DNA of 64,000 nt. Origin: an uncultured Muribaculaceae bacterium (GTDB lineage Bacteria > Bacillota_I > Bacilli_A > RF39 > UBA660). This document shows positions 4,392 to 46,247 of the stretch, piece after piece. Below the pieces are notes generated by a model, which saw only the letters and a list, made by a program, of their open reading frames with translations, ran no database searches and was not told the origin of the DNA. The DNA lies in assembly GCA_964481005.1 (NCBI GenBank), contig CAYZRY010000002.1, positions 3,488 to 67,487 of the forward strand, written 5' to 3'. The stretch's first letter is position 1. Every line of letters begins with the position of its first letter. Both the position numbers and the translations under genes were made by a program.

Positions 4392-5186
4392 TTATAATAC
4401 AAAACGATCTTTAAAGCGACATTTTTTACATAAATCTAAATATGCTTTATTATTTTTAAATGATTGATTAGTTTTGATAAATTCTTCAGATTCTAAGATT
4501 TCAGCAAGTGACTTGTCAAAAACGTTACCAAAACTAGCATCACCATTACCATCTAAACAGCAAGGAACAACTGTCCCATCAGCTAAAATACCAATTTGAT
4601 TGATTGTCCCTAAACAGTATGAATCAGTTTCTTCTTCATCTTCTAAAGTTGGCCATCTAAATTCTTCATCTAAACTTAAATAAATGTTCTTTGCCAATTT
4701 ACAATTTTCTGGCATCTCATCAAAATGATATCTATTTTTAAGAAAATTCATTACCTCTTCGTCATAAACACCATTATTACTAATCCAAATTCGGTAATTA
4801 ATATACATATTATCACTTAGTCTATCGCAAGTTTCGGCAAGAGCATTTAAGTCTTTAATACACTCACTATGAAGAGAAACATTTATCTGATGAACTATTT
4901 CGTTTAATATATTTTCTTTTTTAGTTAGCAGTGAAGAATTGGTCGTAATTACTACTTTGAGATTATTTTTTTGACAAATATCTAAAATATCATTTAATTG
5001 ACTATGTAAAAGTGGTTCACCTTTGACGTGGAGGTAAATATAATCACTGTAATTTTTAACTTCTTTAGCAAGCTTTTTAAAATTATCGATAGACATTTCA
5101 CCACGATCATTCCAAGGTTTACAAAAGCAGCAGTTCAAATTACATTTACTTGTTATTTCGACATATATCTTTTTAAATCTAGCCAT
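4392..5186 (-). CDS. radical SAM enzyme with C-terminal Cys-rich (SPASM/twitch-like) region
   Basis: N-terminal CNLNCCFC = CX3CX2C radical SAM cluster motif at residues ~15-22, GEPLL motif, C-terminal PCC..C..C cluster. ATG at 5186 (MARFKK) chosen over GTG at 5195; ATG overlaps uvrB stop by 8 nt. Confidence 0.7.
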
Positions 5187-25430: not shown

Positions 25431-26301
25431 CGATATTCATAATTTCTAAAATTCTATTTAGATCATTGACATTACTAAAGTATACTTCTAGGGTATTATT
25501 TCTGATTTTTACTCTAGTACCAAGTTTTTCAGAAAGACTATCTTCAAGATGACTAAACTGACTATTACTTGATTTTTTTGTTGTTTTAACTGGCTTTTCA
25601 CCACGAATTATATTTTCTGTCTGTCTGACATTTAAATTTTCATTAAGTATTTTTTCAACAAGTGCATCTACTTCCTCAGCAGTTTCAAGTTTACTTAAAA
25701 TTCTTGCATGACTGGCAGATATTTTATCTTTATTAATTAAATTTTTAACATGATCTGGCAAGTTTAATAGTCCTACCATGTTCGTAATATAGCTACGACT
25801 CTTACCAAGACGTTTAGCTAACTCTTCTTGCGTTATACGAAGCTTTTCAAGTAATTGCTTGTAAGCATTTGCTTCTTCAATAGCATTTAAATTTTCTCTT
25901 TGAAGATTCTCAAGTAGAGCTATTTCCATCATCTCATCATCAGTAAAATCTCTAACTATCGACGGGATAGTCTTTTTTCCTGCTATTTCACTAGCTTTAA
26001 CACGTCGTTCACCAGCTATTATTTCATAACCTTTAATTGAACTCTTTTTAACGATAATTGGCTGAATAACACCATGTTCTTTGATTGATTCAGCTAATTC
26101 ATCAAGCTTTTCAGCATCGAATATTTTTCTCGGTTGGTAAGGGTTGCTTCTAAGTTCATTAATGTTTAGTTCAACTATTTCATCTTTTGAAGTTGAATTT
26201 ACAATACTTTCTTCAATTGATGAAAAGTCCATCTTTTCATTACTGAACAACTCTTCTAAACCTTTACCCATTACTCTTCTTTTATTATCCATTTCTCTCA
26301 A
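25423..26301 (-). CDS. parB: chromosome partitioning protein ParB/Spo0J
   Basis: ParB N-domain (GERRVKAS), HTH segment LGKSRSYITNMVGLL carrying Arg at the parS-specificity position, C-terminal dimerisation domain. True start may be an internal Met (MDNKRR or MGKGLEELF). Confidence 0.9.
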   Translation of the reverse strand: MREMDNKRRVMGKGLEELFSNEKMDFSSIEESIVNSTSKDEIVELNINELRSNPYQPRKIFDAEKLDELAESIKEHGVIQPIIVKKSSIKGYEIIAGERRVKASEIAGKKTIPSIVRDFTDDEMMEIALLENLQRENLNAIEEANAYKQLLEKLRITQEELAKRLGKSRSYITNMVGLLNLPDHVKNLINKDKISASHARILSKLETAEEVDALVEKILNENLNVRQTENIIRGEKPVKTTKKSSNSQFSHLEDSLSEKLGTRVKIRNNTLEVYFSNVNDLNRILEIMNIDE

Positions 26302-27070
26302 TCACTTCCTTAGCTAAATTTAAATAAGCCTCAGTTCCTCTACATTTAGGATCGTACGCTACAATTGGTTTACCGTGCGATGGTGCCTCAGTTAATCTAA
26401 CTGATCTTGGGATGATTGTATTGTAAACTCTCTCTTTAAAATATTTTCTTATATCTTCGACTACATCAAATCCAATATTTGTTCTAGCATCGAGCATTGT
26501 CAGTAAAACTCCTTCAATATCTAGATTTGGATTTAAATTTTTCTTCGCCATCATTATCGAGTTGAGCAGTTGCATTATTCCCTCTAGTGCATAAAATTCA
26601 CACTGCACTGGAATTATTACTGAATCTGTTGCTGTAAGTGCATTAGTTGTGATCAGTCCAAGCGATGGTGGACAATCGATAATTATATAATCATATCTAT
26701 TTCTAACTGTATCTATTTTATTTTTAAATTGGGAACCCCTTTGGAAACCAGGCTCTTTTTGGCTTCTCTCCATAAGTTCCATGTCCAAACCTGCTAAATT
26801 TACTGTCGCTGGCAGGACATCTAATCTTTTGTATCTACTACTTAAAATAGCATCATCAATCTGGCACTTTTCCGTAATAACGTCATAGACGCTATATTGA
26901 AGTTCCCCCTTGTTAATACCCATTCCTGTCGTAGTATTTCCTTGTGGATCTAGATCGACAAGTAATACTTTTTTACCTAGTACTGCAATCGATGCAGAAA
27001 GATTTATACTAGTTGTTGTTTTTCCTACGCCACCCTTTTGGTTGACCAAAGATATTATCTTCCCCATCAA
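26285..27070 (-). CDS. parA: chromosome partitioning ATPase ParA/Soj
   Basis: Deviant Walker A KGGVGKTT, 261 aa. Confidence 0.92.
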   Translation of the reverse strand: MMGKIISLVNQKGGVGKTTTSINLSASIAVLGKKVLLVDLDPQGNTTTGMGINKGELQYSVYDVITEKCQIDDAILSSRYKRLDVLPATVNLAGLDMELMERSQKEPGFQRGSQFKNKIDTVRNRYDYIIIDCPPSLGLITTNALTATDSVIIPVQCEFYALEGIMQLLNSIMMAKKNLNPNLDIEGVLLTMLDARTNIGFDVVEDIRKYFKERVYNTIIPRSVRLTEAPSHGKPIVAYDPKCRGTEAYLNLAKEVIERNG

Positions 27071-37671: not shown

Positions 37672-38124
37672 ATGAAAAATTATGAAATTAATGAAGATAC
37701 TATGGCTATTGTTCCAGTATCATATTATGAAAGTTTAATTAAAGAGAAGGATAGGGAATTCATTATTAACAACAATTCTTATAAAATAATGGAATATAGT
37801 TGTGAATATTATGGAAGTACTATCGGTGGTCGTTTAAAAGCAGCTAAAAAGATATTTGATTGTCCTTATAAGACACCGCTTTTAATCGAAGAAAGTGAAA
37901 ATATTATCTTTTTTCCGACTAAATCTGCCAAAGATGAAGATTGTTTATGGATTAATAATAATTATGTTGAAAAGATAATTAAAAAAGATGGAACAAGTGT
38001 CTTATTATTCACAAATGGTGATTCAATTAATATTAATACATCTAAGCTATCACTAGAAAATCAAGTTGCCAGATCAGCAAGATATGAAAACATATTAAGA
38101 AAAAGAAAATTATCTACAAAATAA
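37672..38124 (+). CDS. comK: ComK-family competence transcription factor homolog
   Basis: 150 aa. Blocks matching B. subtilis ComK as I remember it: AIVP, SCEYYGSTIGGRLKAAK (vs SCRFFGSSYAGRKAG), IIFFPTKS (vs IFLFPTLS), CLWIN (vs CGWIS), SLENQVARSARYENIL (vs SFENQVYRTAWLRTKF). Confidence 0.65.
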   Translation: MKNYEINEDTMAIVPVSYYESLIKEKDREFIINNNSYKIMEYSCEYYGSTIGGRLKAAKKIFDCPYKTPLLIEESENIIFFPTKSAKDEDCLWINNNYVEKIIKKDGTSVLLFTNGDSININTSKLSLENQVARSARYENILRKRKLSTK

Positions 38125-41270: not shown

Positions 41271-43754
41271 ATGGCAGATTTTTATAAAGATTTACAATTA
41301 TCACATGAAATAAAGAAGTCTTTTCTAGATTATGCAATGAGTGTAATTGTTTCACGTGCATTACCTGATGTAAAAGACGGATTAAAACCAGTTCAACGTA
41401 GAATTGTCTATGGAATGAATGAGCTTGGTGCAGTTGCAAGCAGTCCACATAAGAAAAGTGCTCGTATTACCGGAGATGTTATGGGTAAATATCATCCGCA
41501 CGGTGATTCAAGTATTTATGATGCACTAGTTAGGATGGCTCAGGACTTTTCATATCGTTATATGTTGGTCGATGGACACGGTAACTTTGGTTCAATTGAT
41601 GGAGATGGTGCTGCAGCACAACGTTATACTGAAGCCAGAATGTCTAAATTAAGTATGGAACTTGTTCGTGATATGAACAAAAACACAGTTGATTTTACTC
41701 AAAACTATGATGGTGAAGAGAAAGAACCGACAGTTTTGCCAGCAAGATTTCCAAACCTTTTAGTAAATGGATCAACAGGTATTGCAGTTGGTATGGCAAC
41801 TAATATACCACCACATAACCTAGGTGAAGTAATTGATGGAACGGTCGCATTATTAGATAATCCAGAGATCGATATTGATGGATTGATGGAATATATCAAA
41901 GGGCCAGACTTTCCAACAGGAGCAACAATTCTAGGAAATGCAGGTATCAAAAAAGGATACGAAACAGGACGCGGAATAGTTACAATTAGATCTAAAGCCG
42001 AAATTCATGAAATGGATAATGGAAAACATCAAATAATTGTTACAGAAATCCCGTATATGGTAAATAAAGCTAATTTAGTTACTAAAATTGCTGATTTAGT
42101 TAGAAATAAAAATATAGATGGTATCACTGATTTACGTGACGAATCTAGTATGAAGGGAATAAAAATTGTAATCGAAGTACGTCGCGATGCAAACGCTAAC
42201 GTTATTTTGAATCAATTATACAAACAAACTTCTCTTCAGCAAACGTTTGGTATCAACAGTATTGCGTTAGTTGATGGAGAACCTAGAACACTATCTATTA
42301 AAGAAATGCTTGAGAAATATATTGAACATCAAAAGATAGTTATAATTAGAAGAACTAGATTTGATTTAGAAAAAGCTGAAGCTAGAGAACATATATTACA
42401 TGGTTTAGCAATTGCGTTAGATAATATTGATGCTATTGTTAAAATGCTAAAAGAGTCACCAGATGATGAAACAGCAACTAAAAATTTGATAAATACATTT
42501 AATTTAACTGAAATTCAAGCAAAAGCTATTCTAGAAATGAAACTTCGCCGATTAACTGGTCTAGAAAGAGACAAAATTAATCAAGAGTTAGAAGAATTAA
42601 AGAATTTAATTATTGAACTTAATTCAATTCTCCAAGATGATCAAAAAGTTATTAATATTATTAAAACCGAATTGTTAGAAATCAAAGATAAATACGGAGA
42701 TGAGCGAAGAACTAATATTGATATGAGTTCAATCGATTACATCGAAGATGAGTCATTGATCCCTGAAGAGAACATACTAATAACACTAACTAACAAAGGT
42801 TATATTAAACGCGTAGTAAATGACACATTTAAAACTCAAAACCGTGGAGGCGTTGGTATTAAAGGGATTACAACTAATGAAGAGGACTTCCCAGAGAAAA
42901 TAATGTCAATGAATACTCATGATTTCGTCTTACTGTTTAGTAATTACGGAAAAGTATACAGAATTAAAGGTTATGAAATTCCTGAGTTTAGTAGACAATC
43001 AAAAGGATTGCCAATAATTAATTTATTACCAATCGAAAAAGAAGAAAAAATAACTTCATCAATAATGATCAAAGCTGAAGAAGAAGAAAGTAAATATCTT
43101 ATCTTCGTTACAAAAGATGGTTTAATTAAAAGAACTGATCTAAGTGAATTTGACAGTATTAGAAAAAATGGTAAGATTGCAATTCTTCTTAAAGAAGGAG
43201 ACGAGTTAATAGCTGTTAGAAAATCTGATGGTTCAAAAGAAGTAGCAGTCGCTGCAAGTAATGGACGTATGGTTAGATTCGATGAAAATGAAGTTAGAGT
43301 AATGGGACGTAATAGTTCTGGAGTTAAAGCGATTAACTTTGAAGATGATAAAGTCATAGGTGCCGAAGTAGTAGATGCTGAATCTGAAATACTTGTTATT
43401 ACCGAAAACGGTTACGGTAAGAGAACAACTGTAGATGAATATCGTCTAACACATCGTGGAAGCAAAGGAGTTAAAGCTCTAAATATTACTGAAAAGAACG
43501 GTAAATTAGTTTCTATGAAATGTGTTTACGGTGATGAAGATATTGTCATCATCACTGATTTAGGAATGCTAATTAGAATTTCAACTGACGGAATATCTAA
43601 GTTAGGAAGAACAACTCAAGGAGTTAAACTTATCAATCTTAAAGAAGATCAAAAAGTTTCAACTGTTACAACTATTAGTAAAGAAGAGGAAAACAACGAA
43701 GAAACAACTGAAGAAATTGTTGAAGAACTTGAAAATTCCGAAGAAATAATATAA
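41271..43754 (+). CDS. gyrA: DNA gyrase subunit A
   Basis: 827 aa, catalytic Tyr region (..[27 protein letters not shown]..), C-terminal beta-pinwheel repeats, acidic tail. Confidence 0.96.
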
Positions 43755-43756
43755 AA

Positions 43757-43846
43757 TGTAAATGATGCAATGGATTGTATTAGAACCAGGTCAGGATAGG
43801 AATATAGCAGCCTTAATAGTTCTAATCCATGTGCATCATTTTTTTG
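43757..43846 (+). ncRNA. ffs: signal recognition particle RNA, small (4.5S-type, single hairpin)
   Basis: ACCAGGTCAGGATAGGAATATAGCAGCC matches SRP RNA domain IV (E. coli ACCAGGUCAGGUCCGGAAGGAAGCAGCC), with the GGAA tetraloop and both conserved loop strands intact. Closed by long stem AAATGATGCA-ATGGATT ... AATCCAT-GTGCATCATTT and terminal U7. Only ~100 nt between gyrA and tadA, so small type. Confidence 0.8.
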
Positions 43847-43855
43847 AGGTAATTT

Positions 43856-44287
43856 ATGGATGAAGATATTAAGTATATGAAGATAGCGCTTAACGAAGCA
43901 AAAAAAGCATTTAATAAAGAAGAATTGCCGATTGGCGCTGTATTAGTTATTGATGATCAAATTATTAAAGGGCATAATACTAAGCATAAAAGTAACAGAG
44001 TGATAAATCACGCAGAAATAATTGTTATTGATAAAGCTAATAAATTTAAAAACAATTGGAGACTATTAAACTCTACTATGTACGTAACATTAGAACCGTG
44101 CCCAATGTGTGCTAGTGCAATTGTTCAATCGAGAATAAAAAGATTAGTAATCGGAACTAAATCAGATCAAACACAAAGCAAAATTAGTAGAAAAATATTA
44201 AAAGATGCCGGAATAGAGGTTAAATATAACGTTTTGAAAGAAGAATGCGAGGAATTATTAAAAACATTTTTCATTGATAAACGATAA
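43856..44287 (+). CDS. tadA: tRNA-specific adenosine deaminase
   Basis: CDA fold zinc motifs HAE and PCPMC; 143 aa. Confidence 0.9.
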   Translation: MDEDIKYMKIALNEAKKAFNKEELPIGAVLVIDDQIIKGHNTKHKSNRVINHAEIIVIDKANKFKNNWRLLNSTMYVTLEPCPMCASAIVQSRIKRLVIGTKSDQTQSKISRKILKDAGIEVKYNVLKEECEELLKTFFIDKR

Positions 44288-44289
44288 AT

Positions 44290-44333
44290 ATGTTTCACGT
44301 GAAACATCAAAAATTATTTCCCGGGAAATAATT
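44290..44333. promoter_or_regulatory. composite parS + Noc-binding-site palindromes, copy 1
   Basis: ATGTTTCACGTGAAACAT (perfect 18-bp palindrome containing exact parS TGTTTCACGTGAAACA) at 44290-44307; 4-bp spacer; AATTATTTCCCGGGAAATAATT (22-bp perfect palindrome containing NBS core ATTTCCCGGGAAAT) at 44312-44333. Confidence 0.8.
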
Positions 44334-44352
44334 TGAAACAAAAAACTAAGCA

Positions 44353-44397
44353 ATGTTTCACGTGAAACATTAATAAATTATTTCCCGGGAAATAATT
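44353..44397. promoter_or_regulatory. composite parS + Noc-binding-site palindromes, copy 2
   Basis: Identical 18-bp parS palindrome 44353-44370, 5-bp spacer, identical 22-bp NBS palindrome 44376-44397. Confidence 0.8.
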
Positions 44398-44471
44398 TAA
44401 CACATAAAATTATAAAAAATGTACTAATAAATCATTTTTAAAAACTTGAAAATATAATACATAACAATCTA

Positions 44472-44515
44472 ATGTTTCACGTGAAACATTAGAAATTATT
44501 TCCCGGGAAATAATT
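44472..44515. promoter_or_regulatory. composite parS + Noc-binding-site palindromes, copy 3
   Basis: Identical 18-bp parS palindrome 44472-44489, 4-bp spacer, identical 22-bp NBS palindrome 44494-44515. Confidence 0.8.
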
Positions 44516-44544
44516 TAAGTAAATACTATTAATAAAGATAAATA

Positions 44545-44576
44545 AAAGAACATAAAACTTATGTTCTTTTTCTTTA
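44545..44576 (+). terminator. rho-independent terminator between palindrome array and dnaX promoter
   Basis: 11-bp stem AAAGAACATAA/TTATGTTCTTT with 3-nt loop, followed by TTCTTT; TATAAT-like hexamers just downstream. Confidence 0.7.
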
Positions 44577-44618
44577 TAATAAGGAGAAAAATGGTATAAT
44601 AAACATGTGAGGTGCATA

Positions 44619-46247
44619 ATGGAGACACAAGCATTATATAGAAAATATAGACCAAAAACATTTTCTGAAGTATCTGGTCAAAAAATTAGTATTAAAATAT
44701 TAGAAAATTCTATCAAAAAGAATATTTTTTCACATGCGTATATATTTTTTGGACCAAGGGGTACAGGTAAAACAAGTGTTGCTAAGATTTTTTCAAGAGC
44801 AGTAAATTGTGAAGATCAAAAAAACAGACCTTGTGGCAATTGTAGTAAGTGTCTAGAAACAATAAATAATGAAGCAGTAGATATTATTGAAATAGATGCT
44901 GCATCAAATAACGGAATTGATGACATCAGGGAAATAAAGAACAAAATAAATCTAGTTCCTGCAGCGCTAAAATATAAAGTGTATATTATCGATGAGGTAC
45001 ATATGCTTACAACCGGAGCTTTTAACGGTTTGCTAAAAACATTAGAAGAACCACCTGCTCATGCAATATTTATTTTGGCTACGACAGAATTGAATAAGGT
45101 TCCAGCGACAATATTGTCTCGCTGTCAGTTAATTGAGTTTAGAAAAATATCGATCAGAGATATGAATGCAAAACTTAGAGAGATTGCTGAAAAAGAAAAA
45201 ATTAGCATTGACGAGAAAGCGATTAAAGAGATATCTCGCGGAGCAAACGGAGGTATGCGTGATGCGCTCGGTATTCTTGATAAGGCGGTTGCTTACAATC
45301 AAGATGAAACAATTACGCTAGAAGATATTAAAGAAATAACAGGAAATGTTTTGGATGATGATCTAGATGATTTATATAAAAATATTCAAAAGAAACAATC
45401 AGACAAAGTGTTTGAAAGAATCAACAAATATTATGAAGATGGTAAGGATCTTGTAATTATCGCTGAATCTTTAATATATAAAATGAGAGATAGTTTGTTT
45501 GATGAAGATAAGAGTGAAGAAGAAAAAACAAACATATGTTCTATAATTAAGAAGTTTAACGAAACAATTGAAAAAATGAAATCTTCATCTTATCAAAAGG
45601 TTTTGCTAGATGTGTTTCTTATTGAAATGATTCGAGATACATATGAGCACGAAGAAAAAGTTGAAGAGAAACCTATTTCGGCTGAAGAATATAAAAGTCA
45701 AATAAATACTGATGAAAACGAAGAAGAACGAATTAGCGAAGAAGCAGAAAAACCAAAACGTAATAAGAAAAAAGTAATTAAAATCAAAGAAATGAAAGAA
45801 GTTAGAATAAATAATAGTTTTGTCGGAGCAAGCAAATTACTAAAATCTGATTTGCAGAAAAATTGGCAAGTGTTAAACGATTTTGTTTTAGATGATAATT
45901 ATGGTAATAATGCAAAAATGCTGTTATCGACAGAATTAGGAGTAGTTAATGAAAATCACATTGTGATTGTTGTTGAATATACTGGTACAGCCGAAGAAGC
46001 AAACACTAAAATAGAAGAATATGAAAAATTGATATCGCAAGCATTGAATAAGAGTTATAAGATTGTTTTTGTATCTAAAGCAGAATGGAAAGAAATACAA
46101 ACTGACTTTATTAAAAACAAAGATAAAGAATACACTCACATTGATGAAGATGATATAATTTATGAACAAGTTGATCATGAATCAGATATTATGGATAAAT
46201 TTACTGAGTTATTTGGTGAAGAAAATATTAACATAGAAGGAGAATAA
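44619..46247 (+). CDS. dnaX: DNA polymerase III subunit tau (gamma/tau)
   Basis: ORF trimmed to METQALYRKYRPKTF; AAA+ GPRGTGKTS, zinc module CGNCSKC, 542 aa. Confidence 0.9.
   Translation: METQALYRKYRPKTFSEVSGQKISIKILENSIKKNIFSHAYIFFGPRGTGKTSVAKIFSRAVNCEDQKNRPCGNCSKCLETINNEAVDIIEIDAASNNGIDDIREIKNKINLVPAALKYKVYIIDEVHMLTTGAFNGLLKTLEEPPAHAIFILATTELNKVPATILSRCQLIEFRKISIRDMNAKLREIAEKEKISIDEKAIKEISRGANGGMRDALGILDKAVAYNQDETITLEDIKEITGNVLDDDLDDLYKNIQKKQSDKVFERINKYYEDGKDLVIIAESLIYKMRDSLFDEDKSEEEKTNICSIIKKFNETIEKMKSSSYQKVLLDVFLIEMIRDTYEHEEKVEEKPISAEEYKSQINTDENEEERISEEAEKPKRNKKKVIKIKEMKEVRINNSFVGASKLLKSDLQKNWQVLNDFVLDDNYGNNAKMLLSTELGVVNENHIVIVVEYTGTAEEANTKIEEYEKLISQALNKSYKIVFVSKAEWKEIQTDFIKNKDKEYTHIDEDDIIYEQVDHESDIMDKFTELFGEENINIEGE

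Follow-up and report, generated by a model that had tools for sequence, protein, structure and literature searches.

Paired parS and Noc-binding-site palindromes beside the replication origin of an uncultured gut bacterium: a probable centromere with a putative second ParB-family partner

Organization of the array

Analyses of a 64,000-nucleotide stretch of contig CAYZRY010000002.1 (assembly GCA_964481005.1, positions 3,488 to 67,487; here called the window), from a small, AT-rich, uncultured gut bacterium, identified an array of palindromes between tadA and dnaX that correspond to the sites of two related proteins: parS, the site of ParB, and the Noc-binding site (NBS). The array consists of three units (44290-44334, 44353-44397 and 44472-44516), each made up of one perfect parS palindrome and one perfect NBS palindrome, as described in an earlier note prepared from the sequence alone (Table 1). 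The parS of each unit is an 18-bp perfect palindrome, ATGTTTCACGTGAAACAT, the inner 16 bp of which, TGTTTCACGTGAAACA, are the consensus parS, and AATTATTTCCCGGGAAATAATT comes after it with a gap of 4, 5 and 4 nt in units 1, 2 and 3, respectively, the centres of the two sites being 24, 25 and 24 bp apart. The second palindrome, given as 22 bp in the earlier note, is perfect and carries the NBS core as stated there, but its true extent is 24-26 bp (AAATTATTTCCCGGGAAATAATT T). The 16-bp core TATTTCCCGGGAAATA, which is the form used in Noc structural work, lies inside AAATTATTTCCCGGGAAATAATTT and is an exact NBS in all three copies. The three parS copies are likewise exact, their 16-bp palindromes matching TGTTNCACGTGAAACA, while the NBS copies match the consensus ATTTCCCGGGAAAT. 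These assignments, and the two half-site positions that tell parS and NBS apart, agree with the definitions of Jalal et al. 2020 (PMC7383237).

Both sites were rare in the window. The three exact copies were the sole matches at up to two mismatches in the 64 kb for parS and for NBS (0.16 expected for the NBS), and none of 100 dinucleotide shuffles of the window reached three NBS. Allowing up to three mismatches added two further parS matches, giving five in total versus 0.36 expected, a number that was also reached in none of 100 shuffles.

The units had been regarded as identical, which holds for their palindromes only. The spacers between parS and NBS (CAAA, TAATA and TAGA) are unrelated, as is the inter-unit DNA (18 and 73 nt). 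The conservation of nothing but the palindromes indicated that the array is not a recent tandem repeat and that selection acts on the sites.

The GC skew of the window flips at ~34-36 kb beside dnaA (35010), and the array is thus origin-proximal, lying ~9.3 kb to the right of oriC/dnaA. The gene order to the right of oriC is dnaA-dnaN-comK-recF-gyrB-gyrA-SRP RNA-tadA-(array)-dnaX-ybaB-recR, where SRP is the signal recognition particle. To the left are rsmG, a gene for a 472-aa ParB-family paralog, soj and parB. A hairpin with a T-run and then a promoter-like site for dnaX follow the array, as had been noted before. Based on its location between the tadA stop codon and the hairpin, the array is probably transcribed as part of the tadA 3' untranslated region (UTR).

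Table 1. Coordinates, within the 64-kb window, of the array and of the genes and signals considered with it
Feature	Position	Strand	Remarks
ParB/Spo0J, 292 aa	25423..26301	-	Pfam ParB_N + HTH_ParB + ParB_C
Soj/ParA ATPase	26285..27070	-	AAA_31/CbiA/ParA
Noc-type ParB paralog, 472 aa	27160..28578	-	N-terminal and DNA-binding domains 1-207; acidic linker ~211-426; C-terminal domain 428-471
oriC region (GC-skew switch) and dnaA	34545..36362	+	Reference for "origin-proximal"
Small SRP RNA gene (RF00169)	43754..43852	+	Between gyrA and tadA
tadA (tRNA adenosine deaminase)	43856..44287	+	Left flank of array
parS-1	44290..44307	none	18-bp perfect palindrome ATGTTTCACGTGAAACAT, consensus 16-bp core
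NBS-1	44311..44334	none	24-bp perfect palindrome AAATTATTTCCCGGGAAATAATTT, core TATTTCCCGGGAAATA; extended flank conserved clade-wide
parS-2	44353..44370	none	Palindrome reaching 44352-44372
NBS-2	44374..44399	none	26-bp perfect palindrome TAAATTATTTCCCGGGAAATAATTTA
parS-3	44472..44489	none	Palindrome reaching 44468-44493
NBS-3	44493..44516	none	24-bp perfect palindrome
AT-rich hairpin and T-run, probable intrinsic terminator of tadA	44544..44576	+	dG -14 kcal/mol, z -5.4
Promoter-like site for dnaX	44573..44600	+	TTTATA-16-TATAAT, TG-extended -10; consensus match only
dnaX	44607..46247	+	Right flank of array

The ParB and Noc-type proteins of the window

Specificity for parS or NBS has been assigned to four residues, R173/T179/A184/G201 in ParB versus Q/K/K/R in Noc (PMC7383237). 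Among parS binders R173 is invariant and the residue at 201 is small, whereas NBS binders typically have Q173 and R201, with Lys or Arg at 179 and 184 acting as permissive residues; K/R prevail at both of these positions, and at least one Lys is permissive (PMC7383237). Alignment of the window ParB to Bacillus subtilis Spo0J (PDB 6SDK) gave R-M-N-S at these positions, a parS-type set with R173 and a small residue at 201, and the same structure was its best PDB match (202 bits, versus 170 for Noc). The protein has all three ParB domains and an N-terminus with a ParA-interaction-like KRRVMGKGLEELF motif, and its gene is adjacent to that of a ParA/Soj ATPase. The 472-aa paralog, by contrast, had its best PDB matches to Geobacillus Noc (230 bits) and B. 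subtilis Noc (212 bits), versus 184 bits for Spo0J, and alignment to the solved structures gave Q-K-S-R, i.e., three of the four residues of the Noc set (Q173, K179, K184, R201). The GERR and ENLQR motifs for cytidine triphosphate (CTP) are kept in both proteins. Together, the specificity residues agree with parS and, at three of four positions, with NBS, respectively, and thus both palindromes have matching probable cognate proteins encoded nearby, as the earlier note had proposed.

The assignment of the paralog as a Noc, made in that note, was borne out by these residues and structural matches and failed on other points. The K184-equivalent is Ser rather than Lys. The ParB fold of the paralog starts from ~residue 5, its alignment begins at ~residue 24-27 of the solved Noc chains, and it has no N-terminal 10-aa amphipathic helix, the membrane-targeting element that Noc requires for membrane binding and nucleoid occlusion (PMC8429893). 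A helix hidden by a mis-called start was ruled out, as the reading frame is closed by a TGA 12 nt before the ATG, leaving no room for a longer N-terminus, and a ribosome-binding site is in place; independently called homologs begin at the same N-terminus. The paralog scored 280.8 bits against NCBIfam TIGR04285 ("nucleoid_noc"), below the 315-bit cutoff. The C-terminal part of that model (213-255) matched two homologs in their C-terminal domains (E 1e-4 and 0.011) and gave no match to the C-terminal segment of the window paralog itself.

AlphaFold2 modelling from a 45-sequence family alignment predicted that residues 1-207 of the paralog are ordered and that the next ~215 residues are disordered (predicted local distance difference test <50), followed by a confident alpha+beta-beta C-terminal domain at 428-471. 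P/A/V/Q/E residues abound in the linker, which is acidic (net -24), and the model placed one short conserved helix in it, at 282-288, with an acidic polar face. Conserved islands were also observed at residues 276-292, 322-325 and 338-348 of the linker (V280-D281-I282...D291-I292, an FIP motif and GxGLLAGMP), which shows no conservation elsewhere; these islands are candidate short linear interaction motifs. Based on the missing N-terminal helix, the absence of K184, the TIGR04285 score and the ~215-aa disordered linker, the paralog is not a canonical Noc.

These traits were common to the relatives of the paralog, which we sampled as the 120 closest homologs and the best 150 representatives of clusters at 50% identity. 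Family members are 313-821 aa long, bar a few fragments, and in 146 of the 150 representatives the ParB fold starts within ~25 residues of the N-terminus with no N-terminal extension. Q173 was present in 150/150 representatives, K179 and R201 in 149/150 each, and K184 in 0/150; the CTP motifs GERR and ENxQR were kept in all 150. A disordered acidic linker of 150-600 aa precedes the C-terminal domain. The traits, common to at least 150 diverse protein clusters, define a large family.

An alternative in which the paralog is a true Noc, tethering DNA at the membrane, and the array is a dense patch of NBS by which the origin region next to the centromere is anchored or occluded, would be consistent with the exact NBS cores, the proximity of the paralog to solved Noc structures and a gene order equal to gidB-noc-soj-spo0J. 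Related genomes also carry dispersed solitary NBS (described below), as is the case for Noc. In B. subtilis, Spo0J and Noc jointly affect Z-ring placement (PMC6852036), and origin-membrane anchors are known in Firmicutes, e.g., RicO (preprint 10.64898/2026.03.06.710092). However, the helix required for tethering is absent from the paralog and from nearly all of its family, the TIGR04285 score is below cutoff, and the sole confident linker helix, with its acidic polar face, would be unlike a cationic membrane helix. The nucleoid-occlusion anchor put forward in the earlier note is weakened by these features, and we consider such an anchor unlikely. A cryptic membrane anchor, or one mediated by a partner, is nonetheless the main rival to the interpretation that we favor below.

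Arrays in related genomes

A scan of 185,579 species-representative genomes with the pattern parS-core N{3,25} NBS-core matched at least 120 stretches; the figures for loci given here all rest on the 120 stretches among the matches listed and are lower bounds. At least 119 contigs carried clusters of parS and NBS; these contigs were AT-rich (mean 27.5% GC) and came from uncultured gut metagenome-assembled genomes (MAGs) labelled Bacilli, Tenericutes, Mollicutes, Erysipelotrichaceae or CAG:710, a clade that, going by how such MAGs are named, is probably the GTDB order RF39 and relatives. A Streptomyces match (L032) was set aside as chance. Several loci (L006, L018, L025, L030, L042, L056, L080 and others) bear the NCBI labels Muribaculaceae, Oscillospiraceae, Mycoplasma or Clostridium and keep the AT-rich gyrA-tadA-dnaX synteny of the "Bacilli" MAGs, and it is likely that their taxon labels are wrong or that the bins are mixed. 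Nucleotide identity to the window exceeded ~76% in none of the 120 loci.

The arrays occupy a conserved neighborhood, with tadA identified in 100/120 loci, gyrA in 96/120 and dnaX in 94/120. Over 0.89 Mb, 458 parS and 349 NBS were identified at up to one mismatch, and the sites were intergenic around tadA: 434 between gyrA and tadA, 108 between tadA and dnaX, and a further 217 in either interval where a contig end truncated it. The array had been noted in the tadA-dnaX spacer of this genome, and the examination of equivalent spacers in relatives had been recommended. Sites were present in that spacer in ~23/92 loci, which rules out an array specific to it; the window has the minority form of a clade-wide arrangement, present in at least 100 species and mostly placed between gyrA and tadA around the SRP RNA gene. 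That gene was inside or beside the cluster in 18/18 loci tested (L005, L007, L014, L020, L027, L030 and 12 others), and this highly expressed gene is thus embedded in the putative centromere of these relatives.

A typical cluster contained a median of three parS and two NBS over 329 bp, and the largest had ten parS and 13 NBS (L072) and six of each (L027). The parS sites were nearly confined to the clusters, with 420 inside and three more than 1 kb away, as would be expected of a centromere. Most NBS (291/349) also belonged to a parS cluster. In addition, there were 38 exact solitary NBS in 634 kb of origin-proximal flanks (~6 per 100 kb), which can lie inside genes. Exact or near-exact NBS were observed within the dnaX (14) and ybaB (6) coding regions of relatives, which suggests conserved intragenic positions just downstream of the cluster. 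Clustered and solitary copies had in common an extended 24-bp palindrome, AAATT-ATTTCCCGGGAAAT-AATTT, with ~1 bit of information at each of the four extra flank positions per side. This extended form may relate to the family-wide replacement of the Noc K184 by N/S/T/A/G.

On larger contigs the arrays listed were single: the 1.31-Mb circular MAG OZ006981.1 and several contigs of 200-765 kb were each represented by one 8-kb block among the matches. Contig CANREL010000006.1 carries the long paralog-soj-parB operon (L122) and the array (L101) on opposite sides of oriC, as in the window, and no parS or NBS was identified in the 36 kb around the paralog operon of L121-L123. In OZ006981.1 (L072, 4500-5520), ten near-identical 83-bp NBS+parS units form a true tandem repeat that is followed by three more NBS, and in some species the composite unit has thus evidently expanded by tandem duplication.

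Protein-binding sites rather than RNA stems or mobile repeats

Perfect palindromes that are probably transcribed, between a stop codon and a terminator, would fold as RNA, and they could in principle be hairpins of the tadA 3' UTR or of SRP-RNA-flanking transcripts that serve as stabilizers, terminators or processing sites. The variation among the loci indicated otherwise. The clade site logos for parS and NBS had ~2 bits per core position, and in parS the deviations were at the two half-site positions where substitutions are known to be tolerated. Single mismatches were uncompensated (129 in parS and 41 in NBS, 170 altogether), and double variants of the NBS were non-compensatory in 14 cases versus compensatory in one. 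Base identity rather than pairing was conserved, which identifies these as dimer-binding protein sites and not RNA stems, as the earlier note had argued. The window array had no match among Rfam families, the position of the sites relative to genes varies between species, and the sequences equal two known protein-binding consensus sites for which cognate proteins are encoded nearby. RNA hairpins were therefore ruled out as the basis of the array, and we regard an RNA function as highly improbable.

The units are short, palindromic and repeated, and are amplified in tandem in some species, properties also expected of a generic interspersed repeat, a miniature inverted-repeat transposable element (MITE) or the remnant of a mobile element. 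Had this been their nature, dozens of paired copies might have been found per genome; instead, there were no further copies in the 64 kb of the window, one block among the matches listed for the 1.31-Mb circular genome and for each of several contigs of several hundred kb, and a syntenic position conserved in ~100 species. The paired unit gave no match in 2.9 million viral contigs and none in plasmids. One marginal match of 60 bp (80.6% identity) was found at 5017-5077 of MT838424.1, a 5.3-kb, unannotated record from human faeces named "Bacteriophage sp.", which may be a fragment of a bacterium of this clade that was mis-binned. A mobile repeat was ruled out on these grounds, and of all the explanations considered we give it the least credence.

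A regulatory role was also considered, in which clamps at the array would silence or insulate dnaX, tadA or the SRP RNA gene. Some ParB-family CTP clamps, e.g., KorB, act as repressors, and PDB 8QA8 was among the distant structure matches. In the window, the array adjoins the terminator and the dnaX promoter, and the clusters of relatives lie around the SRP RNA gene. Counting against such a role, the array is found on either side of tadA depending on the species, and lies at no conserved distance from promoters. The spreading of chromosomal ParB and Noc is not known to repress neighboring genes strongly. The insulation or regulation of dnaX that had been suggested for the array thus found no support, and we judge transcriptional effects to be very unlikely.

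Pairing of the two site types

The arrangement of parS and NBS within clusters was analyzed by permuting the site labels within 89 clusters 2000 times, conditioned on the ascertainment of the scan (at least one heterotypic pair within 38 bp). There were 375 label switches versus 283 +/- 9 in the permutations (z 10.2), and none of the 2000 permutations reached a number as high. At gaps of up to 40 bp there were 224 parS-NBS neighbors, 11 parS-parS and five NBS-NBS (16 of the same type), i.e., close neighbors were almost always heterotypic. At gaps of 41-400 bp, the corresponding numbers were 154, 119 and 34. No fixed polarity of parS and NBS relative to oriC was found, with the two orders at 52 versus 57 loci.

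The centre distances of tight pairs appeared bimodal, at 25-27 and 35-37 bp with a trough near 30 and a 10.5-bp periodicity signal, the window pairs being at 24-25. Spacing of ~n+1/2 helical turns would put the dimers on opposite faces of the DNA; this pattern was not robust, being weakened by the ascertainment window (16-38 bp), by phylogenetic non-independence and by a less clean pattern when pairs were split by order.

The two site types might each be functional for their own protein and uncoupled, sharing this location only because a compact genome has few intergenic regions near oriC that can expand. Intergenic DNA is scarce in this clade, where tadA-dnaX spacers devoid of sites have a median length of 76 bp, and the lack of polarity, the variable spacing and stoichiometry, and the origin of some arrays by tandem duplication are all consistent with independent co-location. 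However, the tight gaps were heterotypic by 224 to 16 and the alternation had a z of 10.2, NBS can live elsewhere, even inside genes, yet mostly reside in parS clusters, and in the window the pairing was kept although the spacers diverged. Independent co-location is, in our estimation, improbable.

A putative dual loading platform at the centromere

We interpret the array as an origin-proximal centromere in the form of a dual loading platform, from which two paralogous CTP clamps would be loaded, a reading to which we assign a probability of roughly 60%. The three parS copies very probably constitute the chromosomal centromere, as they are origin-proximal, are the sole parS within +/-30 kb, have a cognate ParB and Soj, and are conserved in position. 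The three NBS copies very probably serve to nucleate the Noc-type paralog. The conservation of tight heterotypic pairing over ~100 species while the flanks diverge argues that the loading of both clamps at one place has been selected.

Under this interpretation, each parS palindrome would nucleate a canonical ParB dimer, which would close as a CTP clamp, spread to the surrounding sequence and contribute to the segregation of the origin together with Soj/ParA and presumably SMC. The paralog, predicted to be a CTP clamp also, would nucleate at the NBS palindromes alongside, and the interleaving would load both clamps into the same few hundred bp by oriC as two co-resident nucleoprotein complexes. 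The paralog might thereby decorate the origin and centromere with long acidic disordered arms ending in a dimerization domain, the conserved short motifs of which could recruit a partner, or the arms could act sterically; any downstream role for this complex is speculative. As the paralog is without a membrane-targeting helix, DNA-membrane tethering of the Bacillus type is probably not involved.

Several observations weigh against a dual loading platform. Neither site type is preferentially nearer to oriC, and pair spacing ranges from ~22 to 38 bp or more, which together speak against a rigid co-complex of ParB and the paralog. Alternation can arise passively when a composite unit is duplicated in tandem, as happened in L072; the species sampled share ancestry and are not independent observations, and a parS-NBS pair was a precondition for any locus to be matched in the genome scan. 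In some relatives (L020, L059, L061) parS predominates and the cluster contains just one or two NBS, and the solitary NBS of relatives imply that the paralog also acts elsewhere. The Ser at the K184-equivalent of the paralog is a further concern, as K179 alone may or may not suffice as a permissive residue. The case is entirely computational, all relatives are uncultured MAGs, and the site distribution in this species was seen over 64 kb. After an anchor of the Noc type, the remaining alternatives are progressively less likely in the order independent co-location, transcriptional effects, RNA function and mobile repeat.

ParB and Noc are a textbook case of DNA-binding paralogs whose site specificity came to differ by two bases after duplication; their sites have been described at separate places, parS near the origin and NBS scattered. 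Here, both site types are physically paired at the probable centromeres of at least 100 species, and the element that defines the known mechanism of Noc is missing from the Noc-type protein. One tentative possibility, with the odds against it, is that the Noc-type protein of this clade has no part in nucleoid occlusion and is a second centromere-associated CTP clamp, which would load together with ParB at the interleaved sites into an origin complex of two components. It may then represent the ancestral state of Noc, a ParB duplicate with switched specificity that had not yet left the centromere and that preceded both membrane binding and the dispersal of sites.

Comparison with known systems

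The array resembles the ParABS centromeres of B. subtilis (Spo0J/Soj) and Caulobacter (ParB) in having multiple copies of an exact 16-bp parS within ~10 kb of oriC and a canonical ParB, with parS-type residues and a C-terminal dimerization domain, encoded next to ParA/Soj. It differs in that every window parS is paired, at 24-25 bp, with a site for a second ParB-family protein, and in that the copies are all intergenic and within ~230 bp, whereas those of ParABS systems are spread over tens of kb. Similarities to the Noc-NBS systems of B. subtilis and Staphylococcus aureus include the NBS core, Q173/K179/R201-type residues, intact CTP motifs, a Noc-like C-terminal domain, a gene between rsmG (gidB) and soj-parB, and solitary NBS in relatives. 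Unlike those systems, the paralogs of this clade have no membrane helix, never have Lys at K184 and have a long acidic disordered linker, the site is extended to a 24-bp palindrome, and most NBS are clustered and interleaved with parS by oriC.

RacA-ram of sporulating B. subtilis and RicO-ricS of S. aureus (preprint 10.64898/2026.03.06.710092) likewise combine a dedicated DNA-binding protein with multiple specific origin-proximal sites and contribute, alongside ParB/SMC, to the organization of the origin. RacA and RicO, however, are not ParB-family CTP clamps, bind the membrane or pole directly, and have sites that are not paired one-to-one with parS. KorB and VirB illustrate that the CTP switch of the ParB fold can be re-purposed once it is loaded at a cognate palindrome, but they are plasmid-encoded transcription regulators with different sites, and there was no sign of a regulatory role here.

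While parS clusters, NBS sites, ParB and Noc are all known, the interleaved arrays and the Noc-type subfamily with a long linker and without the helix and K184 appear to be new. As the earlier note had supposed for the paired layout, no description of interleaved parS/NBS arrays or of this subfamily was found in the literature searched in full text, which is no proof of absence; in those texts, the NBS string occurred only in B. subtilis Noc biochemistry papers and one SlmA paper. The arrays offer a natural system in which to ask whether two paralogous CTP sliding clamps that load next to one another cooperate, compete or act as mutual obstacles, what role a Noc-type clamp has without membrane binding, and how Noc evolved from ParB. 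They also identify a probable centromere for a prevalent, uncultured gut lineage with reduced genomes, and as compact natural parS+NBS cassettes they are relevant to existing two-colour ParB/Noc DNA-labelling tools (PMC11109969).

Other features of the origin region

The tadA-dnaX spacer, which in Bacillus is occupied by the SRP RNA gene (scr), was ruled out as the location of that gene in the window, where the SRP RNA is encoded upstream of tadA. A ComK-family gene (PF06338, E 1e-37) at 37672-38124 (+) is inserted between dnaN and recF; the same insertion was found in at least one relative (L122, 314-766), and the rest of the dnaA-dnaN-recF-gyrB-gyrA block is classical.

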